64,000 nucleotides of DNA from the IMG/VR virus record IMGVR_UViG_3300044700_000221, one strand, 5' to 3'. Under the pieces are notes generated by a model that searched no databases, was not told where the DNA came from, and saw only the letters and a program-made list of their open reading frames with translations. Position 1 is the first letter of the stretch, and each line of letters begins with the position of its first letter. This DNA is from an uncultured virus (IMG/VR IMGVR_UViG_3300044700_000221). Lineage: Duplodnaviria; Heunggongvirae; Uroviricota; Caudoviricetes. Both the position numbers and the translations under genes were made by a program. Shown one piece after another: positions 1-58,715 of the stretch.

Positions 1-1011
1 CACGCATCCCGGAGCTGCCTTGATGATCGCCCACAAGTCGCTATCACTCAGACTCATTGAGCCTGATTGATCGATGAGGACAACGCCACCGAGACCCCTG
101 GCACGACGGTCAAAGACACGTCGCTCAGGATCAGTGAGCATACGGTTGATACGTCGTGGGTCACGGCCACTGTTAGTAGCAATGCGCTTGCGACCAAGTC
201 GACCTGCTACACGTTCAGTGAGCGGAAGCTTGTCAAGCATCAATGGTGCAAACCCAGTATCGCCACCCTCGTCAGGTACTTCTTCACCACCAGGGAACTC
301 ATCTAGAGGGAACTCACCCTTATGGCGTAGTAGACCAGCTAGCTGTCGGGCAAGCCCAAGAGTGCCAGTCATATACCCAAAAGGAAGCTCAACTTCCTCC
401 TCATTGATATCTACCTCGTACGGCCTTGTACTATCGACCGAATCGGTGTAGCCCTTGTCCCAACTACGCTTGACAACTTTGATGGTCTTGCGCACATTCA
501 ATGCATGCGCAAGCATCGCTGGGTTAGCGCCGTCTTTGACAGCCTTACGGATACCAGCCATGAATGGCCTGATCGCACCAGTGCCCTCCATTGCCGCGAT
601 TGCGTAAGTCACGTCATTGAAGTTATTGGACTTGGCCACGATTTCACCCTCACGCTTCTCGGACCCATCGTAAAGATAGGACATATCGAAGCCTGCTTTG
701 TTGGCAATGTAGTTGACACGGAACTCTTCACATGTAGTGGCGAGATCCGTGTTGATGCCAAGTGATCGATGACTGTCAGGAACTACCGGACCAAGTGCAG
801 GGCTAACCTTGGCGTGCACCATTTCATGTGCACGGATTGCCCGTGATGTGTCGTCCTCGCCAAGAGGAACACGCATGCGTCGACCGTCGATATCGGTCCA
901 TGCGTTACCCCTCGTTGGGCGACCATCCTCAATTTTCCAGGGGGTTGGTTCCCCCTGGAAAATGTCCTCCCTGGACAACCACTCTGGGTATGGGGCGTGA
1001 GTTTTTGTCAT
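1..1011 (-). CDS. Metallopeptidase-like (HExxH) + VWA-domain protein, partner of the MoxR-type ATPase; partial, runs off the window start
   Basis: Not in the ORF track. Both ends translated by hand from ATG 1011 (TGATG overlap with the ATPase stop): MTKTHAPYPEWLSRED...RAIRAHEMVHAK...GGVVLIDQSGSMSLSD. HExxH and the MIDAS DxSxS motif are in the same frame. Confidence 0.8.
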   Translation of the reverse strand, partial: MTKTHAPYPEWLSREDIFQGEPTPWKIEDGRPTRGNAWTDIDGRRMRVPLGEDDTSRAIRAHEMVHAKVSPALGPVVPDSHRSLGINTDLATTCEEFRVNYIANKAGFDMSYLYDGSEKREGEIVAKSNNFNDVTYAIAAMEGTGAIRPFMAGIRKAVKDGANPAMLAHALNVRKTIKVVKRSWDKGYTDSVDSTRPYEVDINEEEVELPFGYMTGTLGLARQLAGLLRHKGEFPLDEFPGGEEVPDEGGDTGFAPLMLDKLPLTERVAGRLGRKRIATNSGRDPRRINRMLTDPERRVFDRRARGLGGVVLIDQSGSMSLSDSDLWAIIKAAPGCV

Positions 1012-1775
1012 CACTCTCCAATGTTGTTGACACGAATGGTGTCCACGATGGACATCCATGAATTGGGGAACAGCAGCTTGGCTGCTTCATTCAACGCTTC
1101 GTCAGCGTCAAGCCCAGTTGATAACAAGTGACTGCGCAACTTGTCAAACGCAGCCCACCCACGTAGTGAGGTGCGTCGCTCACCCTCAAGGTCTGCTGAC
1201 AAAGCAGCAGGCACACGCAGATCTTCTGACAAGAATGTCAGAGCATCTGGGTGGGGGGTGTTGATGCGCAACGCTACAGGGAAACGATCCTTGAGGGCTG
1301 TCGGCAATTCACGCATGTCCTCGATATTGGTTGTCATCACCGCACTAAAGCCTTGACGGGGCTTCATTTCAGTGCCACGTTCTGGGTGCAACCAAGTTGC
1401 ACTTGCTTCGCTGTCAAGCATGCTGAGCAATAGTGACAGTACGTCACCATTGGCACGGTCGATTTCGTCAACGACTAGACGACCGCCCTGGATGCCGTTG
1501 CCTTCCCAGGCACGGACCGCGGAACCATCGTGCCAATGCCAAGCACCACTAGCACTGGGCATGTAGTGACCAACGACGTCTGATGACGTCATTTCTTCCG
1601 TACAGATAAGACGGAAGGCACCCCCAAGGGTGTCGCCGTAGTTAAGGCCAGCAAAGGTTTTGCCGGTTCCTGGGGGCCCAAACAAGATGATCTTGTCGAG
1701 GCCAGCCTCAAGAGCGAGCTTGACGTCTTGCCAGCACTTAGGCAGTTTGTTGTTGTTGTCTGTTGCCATTTTCAT
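1011..1775 (-). CDS. MoxR/CbbQ/CobS-like AAA+ ATPase
   Basis: Walker A GPPGTGKT, Walker B LVVDEIDR, ALKDRF Arg finger. Start moved to ATG 1775 (or 1769), behind GAAAGGGG. Confidence 0.88.
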   Translation of the reverse strand: MKMATDNNNKLPKCWQDVKLALEAGLDKIILFGPPGTGKTFAGLNYGDTLGGAFRLICTEEMTSSDVVGHYMPSASGAWHWHDGSAVRAWEGNGIQGGRLVVDEIDRANGDVLSLLLSMLDSEASATWLHPERGTEMKPRQGFSAVMTTNIEDMRELPTALKDRFPVALRINTPHPDALTFLSEDLRVPAALSADLEGERRTSLRGWAAFDKLRSHLLSTGLDADEALNEAAKLLFPNSWMSIVDTIRVNNIGE

Positions 1776-1806
1776 ATCCCCTTTCAAGGGTTTGGGTGGA
1801 TAACAA

Positions 1807-1841
1807 TGGACGACGGCACGGTTGCACCGTACCGCCGTCCA
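1807..1841 (-). repeat. Leader hairpin repeat, copy 1 (TGGAC..GG...AACCGTG...CGTCCA)
   Basis: Minus strand TGGACGGCGGTACGGT-GCA-ACCGTGCCGTCGTCCA pairs fully using two G-U pairs. Related copies at 3458-3492 and 5141-5175. Confidence 0.75.
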
Positions 1842-1860
1842 GAAAGAACTACTAAGGAAT

Positions 1861-2202
1861 CTACGGTGCAGATTCCTCCAGCCCAAGGTGGGCTGGTACA
1901 TCGATGATCTGGTTTGTAAACCAGGGCCACAAGTCTGGCAACACTAATGTCAGCCAGCCTGTCAAGTCATCAAGGGATTCAAACACCTTCCCCTTGACGT
2001 CTACTTTCACACCGACAACGTCGGCGTCCGGGATGTCGGACATGTCGTGACCGTATTGCTCACGAAATGCTTCGTGAACTTGTGAAGGCAGATCTTCTAC
2101 CTTCATAAGAAGATGCTTCGCAGCAATTACTGTCCAGCCTGTCATTGGGTGAAACCCTAACTGCACCATTGGGGGTGGTACGTCTGGCATGTCATCTTCC
2201 AT
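1861..2202 (-). CDS. Hypothetical protein
   Basis: 113-aa ORF with AGGAGG RBS, same strand as neighbours. Confidence 0.75.
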   Translation of the reverse strand: MEDDMPDVPPPMVQLGFHPMTGWTVIAAKHLLMKVEDLPSQVHEAFREQYGHDMSDIPDADVVGVKVDVKGKVFESLDDLTGWLTLVLPDLWPWFTNQIIDVPAHLGLEESAP

Positions 2203-2209
2203 TAGTCCT

Positions 2210-2355
2210 CCTGATGGAATTGGGGGGCCTTACGGTCCCTTATGGGTGGTTTAACTTTTCTATCCGCTTTACACGGACAGAAGGAACCGCAACCACGGTC
2301 GCGGGTACCTACTTCGGGGCCGTGGGCTTTCACCCACGACCACGACTTTCGGATT
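2210..2355 (-). ncRNA. Putative structured intergenic RNA (run of hairpins)
   Basis: GGTCGTGGG-TGAAAG-CCCACGGCC, CCGCGAC-CGTG-GTTGCGG and TTCTGTCCG-TGTAAAG-CGGATAGAA; G-U pairs work on the minus strand. Confidence 0.5.
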
Positions 2356-2362
2356 GTTCTAC

Positions 2363-2746
2363 TCACTCTTCCTCCTCAATGTCACTGAAACACCATGCGT
2401 AACGACAGCACCTATCTTCGAGAGGGACGTTGTCATCGTAGGCAGGGTGCCCGCCAACAAATTGTTGGCGCACATGCTCAGGGAATAATTCCAAGAGCGT
2501 GATCACACAGTCATGACACAAGTGCCATGACCGTTCTTCCTGTGTGTAGGGCCACGACTCGTTGAACATGCCGTAGCCTCCTAACCATTGAAGGCTGATG
2601 CCGTTTTCGACCTGCTCTAAGCAGACCTCTCGGTCTGTGCTGTCGTCGTAGACAAACTTGTCCTCTCCCCTGTACCTAGGCCACTCCTCTGGGGCCATTG
2701 GAGTTTCGCATTTGGTACACCGAAGCCAATCTGCTTTAGTGAGCAT
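2363..2746 (-). CDS. Hypothetical protein, possibly zinc-binding (CTKC ... CHDC)
   Basis: 127-aa ORF, two CxxC motifs, GGGAGGGG RBS, TAATG overlap. Confidence 0.75.
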   Translation of the reverse strand: MLTKADWLRCTKCETPMAPEEWPRYRGEDKFVYDDSTDREVCLEQVENGISLQWLGGYGMFNESWPYTQEERSWHLCHDCVITLLELFPEHVRQQFVGGHPAYDDNVPLEDRCCRYAWCFSDIEEEE

Positions 2747-2943
2747 TACCCCTCCCTCTTACGAGAGAGGAGTTCTGCAACTCTGCCCATCCTGCGGGCA
2801 TGGCGTAGATTCTCAAGAATCTCCAGCTGAAGTCGATGACCGAAGTCATCAACTCCAGACCATCGCCAGATTGGGAGGTCGTTTGAGAGCACACCCTCGA
2901 AATAGTTTTCGAGGAAGTTCTCTTCGTTGTTGTTGTCTTGCAT
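2746..2943 (-). CDS. Hypothetical protein
   Basis: ORF MQDNNNEENF..., AAGGGG RBS, translationally coupled to the next gene. Confidence 0.65.
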   Translation of the reverse strand: MQDNNNEENFLENYFEGVLSNDLPIWRWSGVDDFGHRLQLEILENLRHARRMGRVAELLSRKREG

Positions 2944-3021
2944 TTTTTGTACCCCCTTGGGTAGAAGCCCCACCTGATTGGTGGGGACACTTTGTGCTCA
3001 ATGGCTGAGTATCGTTGTTGA

Positions 3022-3393
3022 TCAGTCCGCTAACAGACTGATCAAAGTACTGGCCTGGTTTGCTAACAACCAGGCTTCCTTTGCGGCTTCCTTAGCCCGC
3101 AAAAGATCATTCAGGGCTACCAGCCGAGCTGGATCGTCGCCCTGTGAAAAGATGATCTTGTCGCTAGCTCGAAGCCCTAAGGCCTTGAGACCAGCGACAA
3201 CTCTGTGCTTATATAGATTGTGCTCATTGTGAGCACCCTCTACTATCCGCACGAGCACGGATTGCTGACGTGTCAGGGGGAGGTTACTAAACTCATCCCC
3301 TAACTCTTTTGCAAATTGGTCCATCAAAATGGCCATCCGGTTTTGAACCCGGTCGTCCATTGCTGGACTTGATTGCTTTTTTTTCTTACCCAT
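3022..3393 (-). CDS. Hypothetical protein (stem-enclosed gene)
   Basis: 123-aa ORF, GAAAGGGG RBS, flanked by inverted repeat 2996-3013/3432-3449. Confidence 0.8.
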   Translation of the reverse strand: MGKKKKQSSPAMDDRVQNRMAILMDQFAKELGDEFSNLPLTRQQSVLVRIVEGAHNEHNLYKHRVVAGLKALGLRASDKIIFSQGDDPARLVALNDLLRAKEAAKEAWLLANQASTLISLLAD

Positions 3394-3457
3394 AACAATT
3401 CCCCTTTCTAGGGATTAGTTGAATTTGTTATGACACTCAGCCATTGAGCGATTTGTT

Positions 3458-3492
3458 TGGACGGTGACACGGTTGCAACGGCGACCAGTCAA
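3458..3492 (-). repeat. Leader hairpin repeat, copy 2
   Basis: Plus strand TGGACGGTGACACGGTTGCAACGGCGACCAGTCAA; imperfect stem. Confidence 0.6.
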
Positions 3493-3510
3493 ACCGCCCG
3501 AGAAAGGTAG

Positions 3511-3631
3511 TGAGGCTGAGGGGAATCGAACCCCTGCGACACTTTCGTGATCCTGCCTACTGGCTTTCGGTTAGTTAATAACCAAGCCGCGGACGCGATA
3601 CTTTAGAGTTTGTGCGCTACCATTCAGCCTC
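3511..3631 (-). ncRNA. tRNA-like RNA (perfect acceptor stem and T arm, non-tRNA core), 121 nt
   Basis: GAGGCTG/CAGCCTC-A acceptor stem and AGGGG-TTCGATT-CCCCT T arm; no canonical D or anticodon arm. Confidence 0.75.
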
Positions 3632-3636
3632 TTGGG

Positions 3637-3668
3637 TGGGTCAGGTTTTACGACATGACCCAGGTCGT
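3637..3668 (-). ncRNA. Putative H-type pseudoknot
   Basis: Stem 1 ACGAC/GTCGT; loop TGGGTCA pairs with downstream TGACCCA across an AAAACC linker. Confidence 0.5.
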
Positions 3669-3783
3669 TGAGTTAGTAATCTTCAAGGCTCACTCACACA
3701 GCCAATACGCAGGCATTACCAACCTGTCATACCTTCGCCGGCATGCTAAGCGACAGATTTACGTCATGTCAGGACGCTCTCCG

Positions 3784-3999
3784 TCAGTCGAACGGAGAGA
3801 ATCTTGGTGACTCTTCGTCACAGCGGAATATGAAATCCGCTGCGTAGAGTTTGTCAATGCTGTCGCATTGACGTATGGTCTTGATTAGACCCTTTCGGGT
3901 CTCACGCAGCAATTGCCGCTCAAACTTCCGAGCTAAGCGTTGTTCCCGCTTGTATTCACGCACCTGGCGGTACGTGGTTGCAACCGACATTGTTTCCAT
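3784..3999 (-). CDS. Hypothetical basic protein
   Basis: 71-aa ORF, GGAGGT RBS. Confidence 0.7.
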   Translation of the reverse strand: METMSVATTYRQVREYKREQRLARKFERQLLRETRKGLIKTIRQCDSIDKLYAADFIFRCDEESPRFSPFD

Positions 4000-4002
4000 G
4001 AT

Positions 4003-4230
4003 TTACCTCCCCGCTTTCGCGGCTTCGATTTGGGCCTTGATCTCGGCGGTCATTTCCTTTACCTGCGTTGTTGCTTGAACAACCAACTTACTGGCTGTAC
4101 TCAACGCTCGGCTTAGGACTTCGTGATCCTCATTAGTCAAGTGGGTCATTAGCCCACGTTCCACGAAAATCCGCAAAGCGGATGTTACGTGGGTGACTTC
4201 TTGAGCAGTGCAAACTAGTTGTACTTCCAT
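4003..4230 (-). CDS. Hypothetical protein
   Basis: 75-aa ORF, GAGGT RBS; shares a 16-nt start context with the next gene. Confidence 0.75.
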   Translation of the reverse strand: MEVQLVCTAQEVTHVTSALRIFVERGLMTHLTNEDHEVLSRALSTASKLVVQATTQVKEMTAEIKAQIEAAKAGR

Positions 4231-4267
4231 GATTTACCTCTTCCTCCAAACCCCCACTGGGCGTGGG

Positions 4268-4340
4268 TGCTCTCGGCAGGATTCGAACCTGCGGCCTACG
4301 GTTTAGGAAACCGTCGCTCTATCCGCTGAGCCACGAGAGC
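4268..4340 (-). tRNA. tRNA-Arg(CCU)
   Basis: Cloverleaf: GCTCTCG/CGAGAGC acceptor, GCTC/GAGC D stem, ACGGT-TTCCTAA-ACCGT anticodon arm, GCAGG-TTCGAAT-CCTGC T arm. Confidence 0.95.
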
Positions 4341-4382
4341 GGGTATTTACTCAATGGTCGAACGCCCCTTACTGCGGGGTTG

Positions 4383-4733
4383 TTATTGAGCTTCCTCAAA
4401 GCTGTCAAGGCGATGAATGTACTCGTCTGTTTCCTGTACTAGCTGTAGAAATTCCTTTTGAAATTTCCCTGCTAAAACTTCGAACACGGCTGGCTTCATG
4501 ATTTCCATGAGCCACTCTTCCGTAGGGTATGTTTCGTACCCATACGCTGCATTGCCGAAACGTCGAACGAGGTGATACATTCCTCGCTCGACATCGTCGA
4601 GTGTCACATCACGCCCCGTGACGGGGCATACTCGGTTGTGGGTTCGTGCCCACTTCTCGAGTAGTTTGTGACTGTCGACGATCTTTTCACGTTGATTTAG
4701 ATCATCCGTGATGTACTTCTTTGGCTTTTCCAT
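4383..4733 (-). CDS. Hypothetical protein (stem-enclosed gene)
   Basis: 116-aa ORF, GAAAGGGG RBS, inverted repeat 4346-4365/4767-4786. Confidence 0.8.
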   Translation of the reverse strand: MEKPKKYITDDLNQREKIVDSHKLLEKWARTHNRVCPVTGRDVTLDDVERGMYHLVRRFGNAAYGYETYPTEEWLMEIMKPAVFEVLAGKFQKEFLQLVQETDEYIHRLDSFEEAQ

Positions 4734-4822
4734 ATTGTCCCCTTTCTAGGACTGGAGCAGCAGGAAGCGTTCGACCATTGGGTAAAAAGGTTGCCAATGA
4801 TTAGGTGGGCCGACCAAGTGGA

Positions 4823-5071
4823 TTACTTATAAATGTGGGCGCCGATTGACCAAGTTGATGAGTATATCTTTCTGATACCCAACATGACCATGGACTCTGC
4901 GCCCGTTTCAAGGTTACGAATTCTCAGTTGGTGAGAGCGCATGCGCCCAAACTCTTCTGAATACCCAACTGCAACAACCTTGCCAAAGACGCCTGGGAAG
5001 TCCAGAACATCTCCAACTTGTGGTTTAGACGGTTCTGTATACACATCAACGTCTTGAAACAAATATGCCAT
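4823..5071 (-). CDS. Hypothetical protein, possibly small beta-barrel (stem-enclosed gene)
   Basis: 82-aa ORF, GAGGT RBS, inverted repeat 4794-4815/5106-5130. Confidence 0.75.
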   Translation of the reverse strand: MAYLFQDVDVYTEPSKPQVGDVLDFPGVFGKVVAVGYSEEFGRMRSHQLRIRNLETGAESMVMLGIRKIYSSTWSIGAHIYK

Positions 5072-5140
5072 AACTACCTCGTTTCTGCCCTAAGGGGCAA
5101 TCAGAGGTCGGTTATCCACCTAACCATTGGGCGATTAGGT

Positions 5141-5175
5141 TGGACGGCTGCACGGTTACGCTGTGCGCCAGTCCA
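5141..5175 (-). repeat. Leader hairpin repeat, copy 3
   Basis: Minus strand TGGACTGGCGCAC-AGCGTAACC-GTGCAGCCGTCCA. Confidence 0.7.
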
Positions 5176-5255
5176 GAACGGTCGATGTCAGGACGTGCTC
5201 GGTTTGTTCTCCAAACCGTGAGGCCTAAGCCTCGTTATGGGGCTTTATGCCCCTA

Positions 5256-5411
5256 TCACTTGGCCTTGACGACCAAGTGGTTGAAGTCGACGCGGTTGTT
5301 CGTCAAACGAGCAACCTTGCTAAGTGCCACGACGGCCATGATGCGGCTTTCACCGCTGGCCTTGATGTGCTTGCCCCAAGGTGTGGGGCAAGATGCCTTG
5401 TACTTCTTCAT
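5256..5411 (-). CDS. Small basic hypothetical protein (51 aa)
   Basis: Not in the track; hand-translated MKKYKASCPTPWGKHIKASGESRIMAVVALSKVARLTNNRVDFNHLVVKAK, GAAAGGGG RBS. Confidence 0.7.
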   Translation of the reverse strand: MKKYKASCPTPWGKHIKASGESRIMAVVALSKVARLTNNRVDFNHLVVKAK

Positions 5412-5523
5412 AGTGTGTTCCCCTTTCTAAAGGGATAAGGAACACGCCCTGCCATCGGGGAGAAATGTTTCCCAACGGTTAGGCACACCTTGCTGGACAC
5501 CAACTAGTTGTTGTTGTTGTTGG

Positions 5524-5754
5524 TCAGTACGGTTTCTGGTTTGAATTCAGATAGATTGACGTCGTGATGGCGCCGTTTAACGCCGGGCTAGCAATGTCGT
5601 TAAGGTAGTAAAACACCTTATTCTTCAAGGCTGCTGCTTCGCCTTCGCTCAATTTATCGATGCCCTTGAGCATTTCGAGGGAATGTTCAATTTCTCGAAT
5701 TGCTTGTTTAAGCATCTTTTTGAGCTCTTTCTTCTTCTCCACTGTTACTCCCAT
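5524..5754 (-). CDS. Hypothetical helical protein (stem-enclosed gene)
   Basis: Start reset to MGVTVEKKK behind GAAAGAGG; inverted repeat 5451-5501/5770-5818. Confidence 0.75.
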   Translation of the reverse strand: MGVTVEKKKELKKMLKQAIREIEHSLEMLKGIDKLSEGEAAALKNKVFYYLNDIASPALNGAITTSIYLNSNQKPY

Positions 5755-5873
5755 GATGCACCTCTTTCCGGTGCCCAGCAAGCAATGCCTAACCATTGGG
5801 GAGAAAGGGACCGATAGCGCTGGCATGGGGGATGCCTGCTGCTTTGATGGGGTCGGTCGACTCCCAAGAGTGT

Positions 5874-6054
5874 GATGGACAGCGCCCCAGTTGCCCAAGG
5901 CGCTGTCCATCGGTACCCAATGGCGAGGGGTCATTCGATACTCATTTTCTAAGCGTCGACATTCTTAGCGTTAGACGCTCCCCTTGCGGGCATCGGCTTT
6001 CACCGATGATGGGTTCTCTTTGCGCCCGAAGGCAGCCCATCGTAACGAATGACC
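5874..6054 (-). ncRNA. Putative multibranch structured RNA plus 13-bp hairpin
   Basis: Closing helix GGTCATTCG/CGAATGACC with four internal hairpins carrying cUUCGg, GAAA and GCAA loops on the minus strand. Confidence 0.6.
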
Positions 6055-6176
6055 TGAGACAGATATACTCCTGAGTGGGCACTTGGTGTGCTAAGACGGT
6101 GGGATAGCGTCCGATGCCCTTCAGAGGGCGCTTCGACACGTGGCTGGGATACTAAGGACAGAGGGGCTCAATCAAG

Positions 6177-6725
6177 TCACTTGGAGACGACCGCCTGAAG
6201 GGCGTTCAAAACGGTCGTCATCTGATCAACCGTCAAGACGCCCAAGCGGACATCTTTCAGGAAGGTATTCACGTGGCGCTCAACGAGGACCGATGACTCG
6301 GTCTTCTTTGGCTCCGGTTTGCCGACAAGCGAAAGCTTGCGAAGCAATGACTCACGGGTTGCCCACTTTGTGAGGTTGCCCTCCGCAGTAAGGGTCAAGT
6401 AGTCACCGATGATGGTTTTGGTGGCCTCGGCGTTCTTGATGAACGCTTCACGCACCGTGCCATCGAGGTCCCAGAGGGTTGCCCCATCGGAAGGAAGAGC
6501 CATCGCCTTAGCGAACAAGACCACATAGTAGCCTCGGCCCTTCTCCTCGCCCAAGAGGAAATCAGCTTCGTCGGCCGAGAGACCGACAACCACCTTCTTC
6601 CATTCGGGATCGGTGACCACGGCATCGAAAGCAGCGATGCTCTCGACAACCGTACCGTGAGCGGTGAGGTACGCATTGATAGCGTCACCGCTGGTGAATT
6701 GGACTTGCATTTGTTGTGTACTCAT
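6177..6725 (-). CDS. Hypothetical protein, first gene of the leftward arm (stem-enclosed)
   Basis: Start reset to MSTQQMQ behind GAAAGGGG; long nested inverted repeats on both sides. Confidence 0.85.
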   Translation of the reverse strand: MSTQQMQVQFTSGDAINAYLTAHGTVVESIAAFDAVVTDPEWKKVVVGLSADEADFLLGEEKGRGYYVVLFAKAMALPSDGATLWDLDGTVREAFIKNAEATKTIIGDYLTLTAEGNLTKWATRESLLRKLSLVGKPEPKKTESSVLVERHVNTFLKDVRLGVLTVDQMTTVLNALQAVVSK

Positions 6726-7081
6726 GATGTCCCCTTTCAAAGGATCAATGTTACTTATGGAAGTAACTTTCACGAGCCCATATCCTAAGCGTAACCAGCC
6801 CCTACCCCTAGGTAGTATCTACAGCCTAAGCCATAGACCTATTCCTAGGGGATCAGAACCGTGCCGAAGCGCCCTATGAGGGGCACCGAACTGACCGACA
6901 CACGACCACACTCAGGGGACTAGCAGCGGGTAGCGCCACTCTGCTAGACTATGCCCCGCACCACCGAAGCAGTGAGGAGTCGTAGGAGTTACCCCCTACA
7001 TCAACCGCTTGAGGCGCACCTAGCGGAGGCAGGACCCAGCCCCCGATAACTGCCTAATTGCTGAATAGCCCTATTCTGAAC

Positions 7082-7150
7082 TGTGGATAACCTCATTGCC
7101 CTGTGGATAACTGGGGGGTTACCTGTGGATAACTGGGCACCTGTGGATAA
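7082..7150 (-). promoter_or_regulatory. Cluster of four perfect DnaA boxes (TTATCCACA)
   Basis: TGTGGATAA at 7082, 7102, 7124 and 7142, all in the same orientation, at the strand switch. Confidence 0.85.
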
Positions 7151-7188
7151 GGTAACATAGACCTATTCCAGAACTAAGGAGCTACACC

Positions 7189-7617
7189 ATGGCCAATGAA
7201 CCAGATCGCCCAACCGTTGATTGGAATCGTCCTAATGCAGAACCCCAACGTCCAACTACCACATGGAGACGCTCGGATACTACGCCAACCCCAGGCAAAC
7301 CAGATACTAGTCGTCACCCAGGGCGTCAAGTTAGCCGACTAGCTCATTTACTGGCTACCCATGCACAAAACACTTTTACAGCTCAAAAAGACAGCTTTAC
7401 ACCAGAAGGCGAGCAACAAGGGCTTGGTTTCTATCGTGAGAGTAGAGACTTCAAAAAAAAGATGGGTTATGATGATCTTGGTGAGACATTTATAGAACCG
7501 GCAATAAGAGCTTCTTTTAAGAATAGACATAATAAAGATTACAGTTACGCAGAGTTATATGGTCCTGACGTCCACCCTGACAAATACTTCTCCAGTGAAT
7601 TTACATTTAAACCCTAA
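7189..7617 (+). CDS. Hypothetical protein
   Basis: 142-aa ORF, AAGGAG RBS; contains DTSRHPGRQV. Confidence 0.8.
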   Translation: MANEPDRPTVDWNRPNAEPQRPTTTWRRSDTTPTPGKPDTSRHPGRQVSRLAHLLATHAQNTFTAQKDSFTPEGEQQGLGFYRESRDFKKKMGYDDLGETFIEPAIRASFKNRHNKDYSYAELYGPDVHPDKYFSSEFTFKP

Positions 7618-7682
7618 ACAGTTTGGCCCAACCGGCATATGGATAATGTAATATAGTTTTATTCTTAACTAAGGAGTTAATC

Positions 7683-7907
7683 ATGGCAACAGATCATAGA
7701 GGCAAACCTTTACACGCAGGTAAGCGTACTGCTGATGAACAGTATCAACAAATGACTTTTGCACCACCCAAATGGAGCGATGCGCCTGGTCGAGTTTGGG
7801 ATGGTAGCGGAGATTTAATTTGGGGTCACCCTGATGATACACGCTCACCAAATAACCCCCCTCCTGCGCAAGCAAGACCACAAGACCTATTCTCTTTGCA
7901 TGACTGA
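7683..7907 (+). CDS. Hypothetical protein, N-terminal paralog of 9901-10113
   Basis: AAGGAG RBS; MATDHRGKPLHAGKRTADE. Confidence 0.8.
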   Translation: MATDHRGKPLHAGKRTADEQYQQMTFAPPKWSDAPGRVWDGSGDLIWGHPDDTRSPNNPPPAQARPQDLFSLHD

Positions 7908-7921
7908 CCTCTTTTCCCTGT

Positions 7922-8377
7922 ATGACTCTTAACCCTAGACAGTTCAACAACCAACTACAGATGTTGATGACCGGTAAAGAGTTAATTAACTACATCAACA
8001 CTCCTAGGCACACAAAGTCAGAATTTAACGAGGATGTTGACTCATCTAACTATTGGTCAAGGAAACTTCAAGAAGCTAAGGCCACACCGGAGCAACACAA
8101 TGTTGAAGTAGATGGCAAGATGCAATGGACAGTCCCTCATGGTTCCGGTATCTACGACAGCGTCAAAGCTCATGGGTACTCTCCTGAAGGTGAGACTATT
8201 GAGTTACGTCATACATCAGACGGTAAGGTGCAACAGCGTGATGGAGCTCACCGTATAGCTGCAGCTGCTGCGTTAGAAGATGCAGGTGGAGACCCTATCT
8301 ACTTCCCAGTAGAGCACACCCTTACTGACACCCTTTGGGGAGAACGCGGTAGCACTAACGGTGGAACCGTTAAGTAA
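7922..8377 (+). CDS. ParB/Srx-like domain protein with MTLNPxQF leader
   Basis: IYDSVKAHGY...IEL...DGAHRIAAA resembles the ParB N-terminal DGxHR motif. Confidence 0.65.
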   Translation: MTLNPRQFNNQLQMLMTGKELINYINTPRHTKSEFNEDVDSSNYWSRKLQEAKATPEQHNVEVDGKMQWTVPHGSGIYDSVKAHGYSPEGETIELRHTSDGKVQQRDGAHRIAAAAALEDAGGDPIYFPVEHTLTDTLWGERGSTNGGTVK

Positions 8378-8412
8378 CACCTTTGGCAAGTATATCGGTG
8401 GTTGTGTAAACT

Positions 8413-8424
8413 TGGTACAGTCAG
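8413..8424 (+). promoter_or_regulatory. Putative promoter element TGGTACAGTCAG
   Basis: Identical intergenic 12-mer at 25213-25224; contains an extended -10-like TGnTAnnnT. Confidence 0.45.
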
Positions 8425-8462
8425 GTGGCGTAAAAATTCGCCGTTAGATTGAGGAGAGCGTT

Positions 8463-8846
8463 ATGGCTAGAGGCGAAGACAGACGAGATGATGAAGGCCG
8501 TCAGGTTGGGCGAGACAAATTTGCACCTCCTAGTCTAGGGAGTGCTGCTGCTCCTGCGTGGAAGACTGGTACTTACGCATTAAAGCTTGCACAAAACCAT
8601 GACACTGATGGCATCCTACAATCAGAGTATGACGCTAGAGAAGCTGGTATTCCTTCCCCTCCTCCAACCGGTTGGCCCACTACTCTGGAAATGGTTCAAA
8701 AAGGTCCTCAAGCTTTTGATAAAGCCGTATCACACGTTGTTAAGCCAAATGAGTACAACAACTCATCAGAAAAAATGTATGAGACTTCACGTGCTTTGGA
8801 CGATCAAAACACTATTCGTCGCTACCACAAAATTATCTTTGGGTAA
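8463..8846 (+). CDS. Hypothetical protein
   Basis: 127-aa ORF, GAGGAG RBS; N-terminus MARGEDRRDDEGRQVG. Confidence 0.8.
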   Translation: MARGEDRRDDEGRQVGRDKFAPPSLGSAAAPAWKTGTYALKLAQNHDTDGILQSEYDAREAGIPSPPPTGWPTTLEMVQKGPQAFDKAVSHVVKPNEYNNSSEKMYETSRALDDQNTIRRYHKIIFG

Positions 8847-8860
8847 AAATAACTTTAAAC

Positions 8861-9865
8861 ATGACTCTCAACCCTAAACAGTTTGGTGAACACCAACAAC
8901 AGCAACTTCCCTTAGATTGGGATGCCTCAGAAGCGGATAACCGTAAGGAAGCTGTTAGTAATTTTAAAGTTACAAAGTCTGAAATAGTTCCAGATCCTAT
9001 CCGGGGCGAAGTTGTTAAGACTCGAGAACTGGGACTTGAGAAGCCAAGCGCGATACATCGAATGCTTTCTACATCAGGTATACCAACAAACATCTTGCAC
9101 GACCTAGCAGGGGAAATCCATGTAGAACCCATTAATAACACTACCATTACACCTTCTCTTCCTCCTCCAAAGTCCGTTGCTGGCATTACTGTAAGAGCTC
9201 TAGGTAAAACTCCTAAACCAGTAGAAGTTCAAATAAATGGAACTTTTAATAGATACACTGACATTATTAAAATGAATGCAAATAACTTACCAGACACCGA
9301 TGCACGTTTTTCTAGAATTTCTAAAACACTCACTCATGAGCTAGGTCATAAACTTGATTATCAAAAATCAGGTAAACATAATGAGTTTAAAAATATTGGT
9401 TTTATGCATTTACGCCGAAAGAAGTTACCTGCTGGGTTTTGGCTGTCAGCAGATCCAAGATTAGAAGGGGCAGCTGACGGGTTTGTAGATCAACATAGTG
9501 GTGTTGACCGACCTGACTTTAGCCACCAATTAGTTGACTTCTATGGAAGAAACCCTGGATGGAGTCCTGGTGAACGTGCCATTTATCATGGTACTCGTGC
9601 ACACTTAGCTAAAACTGGAGAACGTTTTGCTGTAGATGCTCCTATTGATAAAGCAGACATGAACGCAGTTGGAAAGCACCTTCATAAACTTACTAATTTG
9701 TCTCCGCACGCTGGAAAAGCCTTGCAGGATGTTGGCTTGTGGAAAAACGCACAATCCCATATCAATGATTACATCAAGTCACGAGTTAACGGCACTCAAC
9801 TTTCTTTCTTTGGTGACGCAGACTATGATACTCATTACTTCCCTGTTTCACACTTTAGGGACTAA
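8861..9865 (+). CDS. Putative zinc metallopeptidase-domain protein with MTLNPxQF leader
   Basis: TLTHELGH (HExxH) with a downstream EGAAD. Confidence 0.7.
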   Translation: MTLNPKQFGEHQQQQLPLDWDASEADNRKEAVSNFKVTKSEIVPDPIRGEVVKTRELGLEKPSAIHRMLSTSGIPTNILHDLAGEIHVEPINNTTITPSLPPPKSVAGITVRALGKTPKPVEVQINGTFNRYTDIIKMNANNLPDTDARFSRISKTLTHELGHKLDYQKSGKHNEFKNIGFMHLRRKKLPAGFWLSADPRLEGAADGFVDQHSGVDRPDFSHQLVDFYGRNPGWSPGERAIYHGTRAHLAKTGERFAVDAPIDKADMNAVGKHLHKLTNLSPHAGKALQDVGLWKNAQSHINDYIKSRVNGTQLSFFGDADYDTHYFPVSHFRD

Positions 9866-11831: not shown

Positions 11832-11905
11832 GCCGGGTGGTGCGTCCGGTTGACGCAAGGTGTCTTATAAACACCCGTAGACGGGTTCAACTCCCGTACT
11901 CGGCA
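11832..11905 (+). tRNA. tRNA-Ile(UAU)
   Basis: GCCGGGT/ACTCGGC-A acceptor, TGCG/CGCA D stem, GGTGT-CTTATAA-ACACC anticodon arm, ACGGG-TTCAACT-CCCGT T arm; G at position 8 is atypical. Confidence 0.85.
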
Positions 11906-12040
11906 CTTTTGATACAATCTATAGGTGACTAAAGAGAACCACCCCACATGTGATACTTCCACGCAGTGTGTTTACTGTGGAGGACAGCTTGTACCTGAAC
12001 ACGCCCACTACAAGTGTAAAGACTGTGGGCAAAGAGACGC

Positions 12041-51210: not shown

Positions 51211-51389
51211 TACATCTCCTAAAAGCAAAAGCCAGAGGCTATCAAAGTTTATCCGATAACCCCTGGCTTTGCCTGAAAGGAGCCGGAAAGGAGAACCACC
51301 AACTTGTCCAGCGGTGTAAACCTACCACACAAATTTAAAGAAAGCAACCTGTTGCAAGAAAGAGTTTTGGGGTGTACAGTTCTCGACCC

Positions 51390-52634
51390 ATGACCACCAA
51401 CGCATTCCAAGGACCGTTCCTAGCCATCCCAGTATGGGCTGTGGAAGTTATAAAGAACTACGGGCAACCCCGTGACCTACAAGTTCTTGTAGGTATGGTT
51501 GCGCTAATGGATCGCCGCAACAGAGAAATTACAGCGTCAGTACAGCAGGTTGCGGAACACGTTGGGGTCTCTAAAGAGACTGTTAAGAGATCGTTAAGGT
51601 GGCTTAATGAGTATGGGATCATTACAACTCGGCGTCGTAAAAACCCTAACGTAAATGTGTACACAGTTCATTATGTTGATGCAAAGATGGGGTCACGGGT
51701 GACCCTAGCTGGGGTCATGGGTGACCCTATAGGGGGGTCACGGGTGACCCTAGGTAAGGGGGGTGATGGGGTCACGGGTGACCCTAGTCAACCCCACTTT
51801 TGTGATGATCTAGCTGGGGAAACGCAATCTTCTATAGAAGTATTAATAAAGAGAGTATTAATAGATAGTAAAGAGAGGGCCGCAAGCGGCGGGGAGGACA
51901 GCATGATTATTGGAGCAGATCCAGATGAACCACAAGAAAGAGAGCAGCCAGTTTCCAAGAAACAACCTGCACGAAAAACCAACAAGTTGTTAAACCACTT
52001 TGTCAGCAATCGCCAAGCCATCATGTCAGCGAGTTACGACCAGAGATCATTGGTCATCTTGAGAAGAACTTTTAATATCCTTACGGACTCTGGTTTAACT
52101 GAGTTCACGGTTATGCAGATGATCAACAAGTTCTTTGCTATGGAGAAATGGCGGAACGCCGAAAACCCAGCTCTGCTGTTCTGTAGTAAAGACATTCAAC
52201 GCAAGTTGATGGAGCAAGTTGATACAACGGTAGAAGTTGATGACCCTGTGTTGTCGCTGATGCTTAATGATTTTACTCGTGACACTTTAGAATTACCTTG
52301 GCCACAAGCGCACGACAATGTTCTCAGAAAAGCAATTGTCATGCATGGTACAGACATCTGCTACAGGTACCCTGAACTTGTCTCAATTGTAGTGCACCAG
52401 TACTCAGGAGATTTTGGGAACAGTGACTTTGTTAATTACCTAACTGCGCTAAACTCATTAGTGAGGTACATCAACGGTGAAGAAGAAACAGATCCAACGG
52501 AGGTGCTCAACACACTAAGAGGATTTGCGTTACCAATCGAGTTACAAAAAATGTCAAAGACATCACTCAGACCATCGGCAAGCTCGATATCTGAAGCGGT
52601 GTACAACTACAGGAGGCTTTCTCATGGATCGTGA
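51390..52634 (+). CDS. Replication initiator-like protein, N-terminal winged HTH
   Basis: SVQQVAEHVGVSKETVKRSLRWLNEYGII; internal iterons; upstream of DnaC-like and DnaB genes. Confidence 0.75.
   Translation: MTTNAFQGPFLAIPVWAVEVIKNYGQPRDLQVLVGMVALMDRRNREITASVQQVAEHVGVSKETVKRSLRWLNEYGIITTRRRKNPNVNVYTVHYVDAKMGSRVTLAGVMGDPIGGSRVTLGKGGDGVTGDPSQPHFCDDLAGETQSSIEVLIKRVLIDSKERAASGGEDSMIIGADPDEPQEREQPVSKKQPARKTNKLLNHFVSNRQAIMSASYDQRSLVILRRTFNILTDSGLTEFTVMQMINKFFAMEKWRNAENPALLFCSKDIQRKLMEQVDTTVEVDDPVLSLMLNDFTRDTLELPWPQAHDNVLRKAIVMHGTDICYRYPELVSIVVHQYSGDFGNSDFVNYLTALNSLVRYINGEEETDPTEVLNTLRGFALPIELQKMSKTSLRPSASSISEAVYNYRRLSHGS
51689..51786. repeat. Four 19-bp palindromic iterons (putative origin)
   Basis: GGGGTCAYGGGTGACCCTA at 51689, 51711, 51734 and 51768; AT-rich tract at about 51830-51877. 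Confidence 0.85.
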
Positions 52635-58128: not shown

Positions 58129-58288
58129 GCTTTATGAATGGCTGAAAGACAAGTCGACGGTAGTTACTGCGTCTGGCCAAACCTATGACATTGTAAAGTT
58201 TAAACAGGCCGTGTCTCTTATAGAGTTTCTTATGGAAGAGCGGGACTACTGGAAAAGAGCATACGAAGAGGCGCGTAGTGACTCGTGA
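58115..58288 (+). CDS. Small hypothetical protein
   Basis: Fills the gap and overlaps both neighbours. Confidence 0.6.
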   Translation: MTTNELYEWLKDKSTVVTASGQTYDIVKFKQAVSLIEFLMEERDYWKRAYEEARSDS

Positions 58289-58715
58289 TCCTCTAGACAT
58301 GTTCAACGCACTTCCAGACTTTCCTGGTAAGACCCCTCCTAAAAACAGGCCAAGCAAAGTACGCGATTCAATTATTGAGGATCGTTTTAATGGCGCTAAG
58401 TCCAAGATGATGAAGGTCAATGGGGTCGAAAGACAGTTCTTTACGGTTGGTGAATTAGCAAAAGCTCTTAACCGTAAGCCGGTTACAATCAGGTCATGGG
58501 AGCTTAACGGTTGGCTTCCAAAAGCTAAGTACAGGACACCCGCTCCACGTGGCGTACAAATTCCTGGAAAAGTTGCAAAAGGACGTAGGCTTTACTCGCT
58601 AGAGCAGGTAGAGTTTCTACTTACCGCGTTGTCGCGGTTTGAGATAGACGACCCAGCCAAGGCCAACTGGGTCGGCTTCAGACAACACATCAAAAACAAA
58701 TGGCCCAACGATTAA
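58278..58715 (+). CDS. MerR-like HTH DNA-binding protein
   Basis: FTVGELAKALNRKPVTIRSWELNGWLP...GRRLYS. Confidence 0.82.
   Translation: MTRDPLDMFNALPDFPGKTPPKNRPSKVRDSIIEDRFNGAKSKMMKVNGVERQFFTVGELAKALNRKPVTIRSWELNGWLPKAKYRTPAPRGVQIPGKVAKGRRLYSLEQVEFLLTALSRFEIDDPAKANWVGFRQHIKNKWPND

Follow-up and report, generated by a model that had tools for sequence, protein, structure and literature searches.

Why do the two flanks of a single small phage gene pair with each other across the whole gene, and what would such a stem do for the message that it encloses? The question is raised by a locus in a 64,000-nucleotide stretch of DNA from an uncultured virus (IMG/VR IMGVR_UViG_3300044700_000221), hereafter called the window. 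The window is part of a tailed phage genome with recognizable terminase, capsid and tail sheath families. Its terminase is 45% identical to those of Streptomyces phages BRock, LuckySocke and their kin, and its AAA ATPase shows a weak match to Actinomycetia phage DSL-LC01; together with the capsid and tail sheath families, these matches point to an actinobacterial host.

Left of ~7050, small orphan genes form a leftward block together with a tRNA-Arg and a short pair of tmRNA-like ends, and the genes to the right of the DnaA-box region run rightward. The gene at 6725-6177 (−) is the first of the leftward genes, and gene size and position suggest that it is early. Neighbouring genes possess stems of their own. 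At the Rfam gathering score, the whole window gave one match, a tRNA. ARAGORN predicted a tRNA-Ile(TAT) at 11832-11906 (+), which has no Rfam match at this score. A 124-nt RNA with tmRNA/tRNA-like ends at 3508-3631 (−) matched the Rfam tmRNA model (E 5e-8, 26.7 bits, gathering score 47); it is 84% identical to a segment at 7707-7829 of a related phage locus, L003, and was not called by ARAGORN.

Results

A long nested stem encloses the first leftward gene

Duplex folding of the minus-strand flanks of the 182-aa gene predicted 82 pairs, comprising 51 in an outer stem (−81.9 kcal/mol) and 31 in an inner stem (−43.1 kcal/mol) (Table 1). An original prediction made from the sequence alone had placed three blocks of a very long nested minus-strand stem around this gene, and all three were recovered in place. 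The terminal helix (6909-6916/6070-6077) is a perfect 8-bp helix. The outer core (6860-6891/6109-6140) contains 31-32 bp with two mismatches (C.A and U.C) and three G-U pairs; as a 32-bp near-regular helix with two single mismatches, it lies above both the 11-bp minimum and the ~22-bp ideal for RNase III, and both of its arms are weakly self-complementary. In the inner stem, four blocks pair with 6182-6142, and the innermost helix, AAGUUACUU/AAGUGACUU, holds the UGA stop codon at 6179-6177, which bears out the earlier claim that the stem covers the stop codon. That description lacked two elements. One is a set of three short helices (6907-6894 with 6100-6078) lying between the terminal helix and the core, and the other is a folded side arm of 59 nt that interrupts the 5′ strand. 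The stem is real and larger than originally stated.

When folded as a unit, the minus strand of 6050-6940 reached −407.7 kcal/mol (z −13.3, with 0/20 shuffles as good), compared with z −4.2 for the plus strand. Since the ORF alone is over-folded (z −6.9 vs 14 synonymous shuffles) and supplies part of the unit's z, tests restricted to the arms weigh more. Cofolding of the two arms, which had been put forward as a check, yielded a flank duplex of −151.1 kcal/mol, more stable than every one of 132 mismatched pairings of flanks taken from this region (mean −93.7, sd 11.3, best −129.8). Moreover, the core helix score of 66 is the highest of any long-range helix in the 64 kb on either strand, compared with best scores of 35-51 in each of 30 shuffles of the 7.2-kb region. 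An Rfam search of 2900-7300 at E up to 2 gave no match on 5800-6960.

Over-folding relative to synonymous shuffles was also observed for most leftward ORFs (21/21 tested in window 1011-6725 (−) and in the related loci L001 and L003; z −1.5 to −9.3) and for the portal and DNA polymerase genes (z −5.7 and −4.5). Four rightward ORFs at 7189-9409, unlike the leftward ones, gave z +2.0 to −0.2.

Table 1 Features of the first leftward gene and its surroundings in the window
Feature	Position	Strand	Basis
Upstream control region: four TTATCCACA DnaA boxes (7082-7150), operator-like motif (7063-7076 and 7158-7168)	7063-7168		Motif search
Outer stem, 5′ arm: 8-bp terminal helix (6916-6909), short helices (6907-6894), 32-bp core (6891-6860)	6860-6916	−	Folding
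Side arm, 59 nt; hairpin with G-U pairs, looped out of the 5′ strand	6801-6859	−	Folding
Operator-like motif RAATAGnnCTA in the side arm	6834-6844	−	Motif counts, three phages
Inner stem, 5′ arm, four helices	6761-6800	−	Duplex folding
Top candidate RNase III site; partner strand 6160-6153; GG 6785-6784 / CC 6157-6156 at its centre	6781-6788	−	Site pattern, inferred
Ribosome-binding site AAAGGGG, outside the long-range stem	6731-6737	−	Sequence
Enclosed gene, 182 aa, ATG start	6177-6725	−	ORF
Inner stem, 3′ arm; starts in the last codon and covers the stop codon	6142-6182	−	Folding
Outer stem, 3′ arm	6070-6140	−	Folding
Multi-hairpin non-coding segment directly behind the stem; candidate released RNA	5928-6053	−	Sequence, folding

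Related phages keep the layout of the stem

Through the AAA gene of the window we obtained 33 loci, 3 of which share its control region: L001 and the near-identical L002 and L003. A hairpin pattern (4 loci) additionally found L045, which is identical to L003 over the stem. Searches with control-region DNA patterns recovered only the three known phage types: one search returned 3 loci, another returned 6 of which 3 were chance, the single metagenome match was the L001 contig again, and genomes gave none. The control region is absent from L044. The same first gene was found in none of the candidate viral contigs (0/34 by protein, 0/35 by alignment A1), in none of 347 metagenome contigs and in none of five large related records; blastn of 5800-7300 against 50,697 phage records matched only at the DnaA-box array (5 records).

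In L001 and L003, the first leftward genes (2788-3408 and 5771-6340, respectively) are likewise enclosed by flank stems, with whole-unit fold z-scores of −13.3, −12.8 and −16.1 in the window, L001 and L003 (the same order is used below). The dimensions are similar throughout: the leader measures 191/192/199 nt, the side arm 59/66/68 nt, the interval from inner stem to ATG 75/77/76 nt and the trailer 107/89/105 nt. The leaders are only weakly alike in sequence, and the first-gene coding sequences are over-folded in all three (z −6.9/−6.4/−6.6). Among the ORFs tested (13 in the early part of the window, 27 in L001 and 27 in L003), the first gene has the most stable flank duplex, while for single helices the second gene outscores the first-gene core in L001 (69 vs 62) and L003 (67 vs 59). 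When a UAGG common to the cores is taken as the anchor, 20, 11 and 13 of 31 columns differ at both partners of a pair, which, for three sequences and a rough anchor, shows sequence replacement under kept predicted pairing rather than formal covariation. What is kept across arms and cargo is the geometry; sequence and enclosed gene vary.

The original prediction had set this stem apart from the stems with a CAAUGG core as a distinct version. The window stem does lack that core, but its L003 equivalent holds CAGUGG paired with CCAUUG, plus CUAUGG, and the CAAUGG core fits the RNase III site pattern described below. A division into two classes is therefore not supported, and the window stem looks like the largest member of one series with the CAAUGG stems.

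A long-range helix scan of 25 of the 33 AAA-gene loci (near-duplicates L002, L007, L009, L011, L012, L013, L027 and L031 were left out) also gave high scores in L004, L008, L018, L030 and L032. Gene clamps were rejected as the source of the scores in L004 and L018, and the DNA of these more distant loci, when read, showed no clamp; instead, each small gene is preceded by a promoter-and-ribosome-site cassette, ACACCCC...TATAAT...ACCTACTA, and copies of this cassette stand in opposite orientations (L004 400-3600, L018 1300-3500). Comparison of L045 with L003 revealed an identical leftward region and a sequence that differs from the conserved control block rightward, placing a mosaic boundary just upstream of the clamped gene.

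Pairing preferences point to the mRNA

In a strand-neutral alignment, the six first-gene half-stems contain 220 Watson-Crick, 30 G-U, 9 A-C and 11 other pairs (P 5e-4). The excess of G-U over A-C argues for selection on the coding strand as RNA; in six other stems, the corresponding counts of 14 vs 10 are not significant (P 0.27). The sense strand outperforms the antisense strand by 26-32 kcal/mol with RNA energies and by 3-9 kcal/mol with DNA energies. The stem thus most likely exists in RNA, and these preferences point to the mRNA. For the side arm, the fold z-scores are −4.5/−2.3/−3.9 on the sense strand vs −2.5/−0.1/−0.7 on the antisense strand. This preference in all three phages suggests that the RNA includes the side arm and hence starts upstream of it. 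Pairing potential, strand bias and conservation of the stem are shown by these predictions and comparisons.

The inner stem contains a candidate RNase III site

RNase III substrates have a minimum of 11 bp (PMC1540722), and the dimer covers 22 bp (PMC3867540). E. coli RNase III sites in mRNA have strands 16-1080 nt apart, with a median of 58 (PMC6212723), and the B. subtilis enzyme cuts 10-36-bp mRNA duplexes with strands up to 505 nt apart (bioRxiv 2023.03.12.532304). We scored stems with a simplified site pattern, W-x-W-S-S-W-x-W, reduced from PMC1540722, PMC6212723, PMC3867540 and PMC3074117, in which A-U pairs at proximal-box positions 2 and 4 and a W-S-S-W centre count as permissive; the underlying rules come from E. 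coli, Aquifex and B. subtilis and may not be those of the host.

The inner helix 6788-6781/6160-6153 fits 6/6 pattern positions (P 0.013 vs shuffled pair order). It is the only one of 12 stems to beat its own shuffles, which is not significant after 12 tests; the sum over the 12 stems is 61.5 vs 58.0 ± 1.8 for shuffled pair order (P 0.039). The outer core scores 4.5/6 (P 0.73), the first-gene half-stems of L001 and L003 score 4.5-5 (P 0.56-0.81), and the CAAUGG stems score 5-5.5 of 6. The helix that holds the candidate site has 10 bp with a U.U mismatch and lies between internal loops, at or below the substrate minimum given in PMC1540722. Judged by this pattern, the window appears to have one good cleavage site and the GC-rich outer core none, and cleavage by RNase III is plausible. 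None of five related phage records, three of them near-complete, contains an RNase III gene, so the enzyme would be the host's; the RNase III family is present in the actinobacterial control Corynebacterium glutamicum.

We propose that the stem is an rRNA-style leader-trailer stalk that would be cut by host RNase III to release an end-paired mRNA, a reading to which we give about an even chance. A long leftward transcript would start upstream of 6916, near the DnaA-box region. After the first gene has been transcribed, the ~190-nt leader would pair with the 107-nt trailer over ~80 bp, with the GC-rich outer core acting as a zipper. Host RNase III would then cleave the two strands, and the likeliest place is near 6784/6156 in the inner helix, which is richer in A-U. 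The ends of the freed single-gene mRNA would still be held together by ~20 bp, a duplex that would include the stop codon and leave the ribosome site free. The cut would separate the first message from what lies downstream, namely the structured RNA and the next gene in a clamp, and may yield a longer-lived, separately dosed message.

Alternatively, the stem may remain uncut and serve as an end-clamp and folding scaffold. Transcription would start near 6916 and end, or be trimmed by other means, near 6070, and the 80-bp helix would shield the ends from exonucleases and give a long-lived message. The GC-rich outer core, which lacks the site pattern, suits this alternative, since RNase III fails to bind or to cut where proximal-box positions 2 and 4 are GC pairs (PMC1540722). 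So do the over-folded coding sequences inside the stem and its length of 80 bp, far above what an RNase III dimer covers. However, we found neither a start nor a terminator at the base of the stem, RNase III by default attacks long regular helices, and the core common to the sister stems agrees with the site pattern. We regard an uncut clamp as unlikely, though worth weighing.

The side arm carries an operator-like motif

The motif RAATAGnnCTA in the side arm of the window ends 34 nt upstream of the inner stem and 109 nt upstream of the ATG; the corresponding distances are 33 and 110 nt in L001 and 36 and 112 nt in L003. The motif occurs more often than expected in all three phages (4 matches vs 0.66 expected in the window, 5 vs 0.21 in L001 and 5 vs 0.31 in L003), and all of these copies are located in the control region or the side arm. 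Those outside the side arm lie beside DnaA boxes and behind presumed rightward promoters, and one copy is a palindrome. Three further copies in G001 fall inside structural-gene coding sequence and are uninformative. The motif resembles a DNA element recognized by a protein and could signal a promoter within the side arm. Clues to whether transcription starts only below ~6800, the case that would undo the original prediction, are divided, with the strand-specific folding of the side arm on one side and the fixed distance of the motif from the inner stem on the other. Helix-turn-helix (HTH) proteins encoded at window 51372-52634 and 58278-58715 are candidate binders of the motif. A promoter scan of 5000-7600 found no site, and no −10 hexamer is common to the three phages at the expected place in the side arm.

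The motif raises the prospect of a switch between two promoters. An operator-controlled promoter in the side arm would produce a short message from ~6800 with the inner stem only, and the outer stem, present on read-through RNA from upstream, would mark another fate; the DnaA-box region and the rightward promoters would have this operator too, and the protein encoded inside the stem might be what binds it. Such a switch would account for the enrichment and confinement of the motif, for its palindromic copy and for its position 33-36 nt before the inner stem in 3/3 phages, where a −35 or activator site would lie, in leaders that are otherwise little alike. An Atlas search also gave the DUF3102 and DUF6192 clusters for two of the first proteins, as low leads only. 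The lack of a shared −10 hexamer and of a promoter match there weighs against the switch, as does the better folding of the side arm on the sense strand, which argues for its transcription. In addition, the first-gene proteins of the window, L001 and L003 gave no BLASTP alignment with one another while the motif is constant, which argues against an operator bound by the enclosed protein. We consider the switch quite unlikely. Even with a side-arm promoter, the outer stem would have to form in some RNA, because the G-U bias and the kept geometry would otherwise be unexplained; two start sites would reconcile both.

The four DnaA-box 9-mers of the window are perfect, share one orientation and are spaced 18-22 nt. 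L001 and L003 have three or four boxes, clusters also occur in L004, L005, L008 and L028, and a DnaA-box-like array is found at the genome end of Klebsiella phage ZK1. Candidate readings of the array are an origin, DnaA titration or an entry signal. A repeat, CCAACC...TGGATAAnGTAAyAT, precedes rightward genes at window 7140-7160 and 7625-7655 (+) and is kept in L001, L003 and L045; it is a candidate rightward promoter.

A multi-hairpin segment lies directly behind the stem

The segment at 5928-6053 is closed by a 9-bp helix and has UUCG, GAAA and GCAA loops on the minus strand. It has no Rfam match, and its fold z-scores (−2.5 minus, −3.0 plus) do not fix the strand. Freshwater metatranscriptomes of two studies each provided one contig behind the stem, 5930-6101 (0 differences) and 5918-6114 (2 differences), at depth ~3, and 5928-6053 is the only part of 5400-9000 that lies under near-identical contigs in two RNA studies. 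This check covered 3/5 listed runs as assembled contigs, which cannot show ends, strand or absence; no contig over the gene or leader and no joints were seen, which contigs at depth ~3 cannot turn into absence. The contigs are a weak hint of a stable RNA, with DNA carry-over possible.

The corresponding slot in L001 and L003 is occupied by a different structured element (L001 3500-3620, L003 6440-6560), which is very stable (z −6.7 in L001) and has possible loop-loop pairings, GAUUA/UAAUC and CCUCC/GGAGG, suggesting a pseudoknot. Hairpins bounded by GGAC...GTCCA precede several leftward genes in the window (5876-5909 (−), 1807-1841, 3458-3495 and 5141-5178), and the one at 5876-5909 is kept in L001, L003 and L045.

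A variant of the cleavage model gives this RNA a role of its own. In it, the first gene would be cut out much as an intron is, but without any splicing. The inner-helix cut would free the end-paired mRNA, and the leader and side arm would stay joined to the trailer and multi-hairpin RNA by the 50-bp GC-rich helix, bound but uncut by RNase III. The first transcript would then yield both a protein and a dsRNA decoy that ties up host RNase III or another dsRNA-binding defence, and the phage lineage would conserve geometry rather than sequence or cargo. We put this variant forward tentatively, as one with a slim chance of being correct.

The enclosed protein has no assigned family

The protein of the enclosed gene has 8 relatives at 68-98% identity and 3 matches in the 50% library. 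All nine members of alignment A1 end in lysine, which would fit an AAG-stop held by the innermost helix. The protein is predicted to be all-helical (model pLDDT 65; a first AlphaFold model had pLDDT 43). It had been proposed as a candidate host-takeover or processing factor, and structure prediction with a Foldseek search had been suggested for it. No family was assigned by Pfam (best E 0.05) or PHROGs (best E 0.01), PDB sequences gave a best E of 0.078, and a fold search of the pLDDT 65 model reached a best Z of 5.5 over 45 residues, with no Foldseek match at E up to 0.001. Its Atlas neighbours are hypothetical phage proteins. Nothing in these searches supports a nuclease, host-takeover or RNA-processing role. 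Profile comparison with the first genes of the relatives revealed only a C-terminal two-helix piece of 41-44 columns that resembles the piece in the L003 family (probability 55%, E 1e-4) and, weakly, that in L001 (probability 6%, E 0.007).

The ribosome site AAAGGGG lies in a weak local hairpin that is common to five leftward genes (1778-1790, 3400-3414, 4738-4750, 5419-5433 and 6730-6745).

A translation lock, in which the clamp would silence a toxic early protein until processing, as in type I toxin mRNAs, is very unlikely: the 5′ and 3′ untranslated regions do pair, and the nascent leader of the window has an alternative fold (z −3.4), but L001 (z −0.6) and L003 (z −1.2) show no significant fold of this kind, and the ribosome site is at least 24 nt outside the stem, with the same predicted accessibility in the full, nascent, short and cut forms.

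Equally improbable is a DNA-level element, in which the arms would be inverted repeats for cassette exchange or would fold as ssDNA while the phage enters or replicates, next to DnaA boxes in the manner of the T5 injection-stop region; the slot holds different genes in relatives, DnaA boxes lie 170 nt upstream, inverted repeats accompany DnaA boxes in T5-like phages (bioRxiv 866236) and both core arms are weakly self-complementary. Against it, the arms are interrupted, are not conserved from gene to gene or phage to phage and show G-U enrichment on the coding strand alone, and with DNA energies neither strand is much preferred. L045 and L003, moreover, have all of the clamped region in common, and their difference lies just upstream of it, so that this exchange did not use the arms.

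Discussion

The stem at this locus is probably a real device for cutting out or protecting the first message. Its closest counterparts are the leader-trailer stems from which RNase III processes 16S and 23S rRNA (PMC6582327, PMC6212723). As in those stems, a long helix is formed from the flanks of one cistron, which is looped out, and several stems follow one another within a single operon, where tRNA-like RNAs also occur. Unlike in rRNA, the cargo is a protein-coding gene, the helix of ~80 bp has a side arm and reaches into the last codon, the arms are unconserved, and cleavage is a proposal here. A boxA-like motif in its mycobacterial form, possibly not that of the host, has 31 matches in the window (32 expected) and none in 6725-7200.

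The long-range RNase III sites in mRNAs of B. subtilis and E. coli are also intramolecular duplexes with strands hundreds of nucleotides apart; the window duplex exceeds them more than twofold in length, uses untranslated flanks to bracket an entire gene, and is of a type that recurs gene by gene and is kept across phages. In phage T7, host RNase III divides the early transcript into single-gene messages. At the T7 early sites, R1.1 and its kin, the outcome resembles what we propose here, in that host RNase III would split a phage early transcript into single-gene messages. R1.1 itself is an RNase III substrate (PMC1540722). Whereas the T7 sites are local hairpins between genes, the strands in the window come from opposite sides of a gene, and the product would have paired ends.

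Type I toxin mRNAs such as hok and aapA pair their 5′ and 3′ ends, leader with trailer, across the ORF. The leader and trailer of the window pair in the same way; unlike in those mRNAs, the ribosome site lies outside the long-range helix with no predicted change in accessibility, no antisense RNA was found in the window case, and the protein has 182 aa. No phage gene enclosed by its own flanking stem was described in the literature searched (titles and abstract starts, with subscription journals mostly outside). The window case adds to these systems the length of the stem, a conserved motif carried in a side arm, and a geometry that persists although arms and cargo are unrelated.

If the cleavage model is correct, this phage lineage would handle protein genes as bacteria handle rRNA, with the flanks of each message looping it out so that it can be cut or shielded as one unit, and a message under translation would form long-range pairs over distances of 550-850 nt. 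A measuring device, consisting of a 190-nt leader, a 60-70-nt side arm and 76 nt to the start codon, would outlast both the arm sequences and the gene. The stem would then allow the first-expressed genes of uncultured phages to be recognized independently of sequence. It would also offer a substrate for testing the RNase III of actinobacteria, an enzyme that has received little study, and a natural design for end-protected bacterial mRNA.
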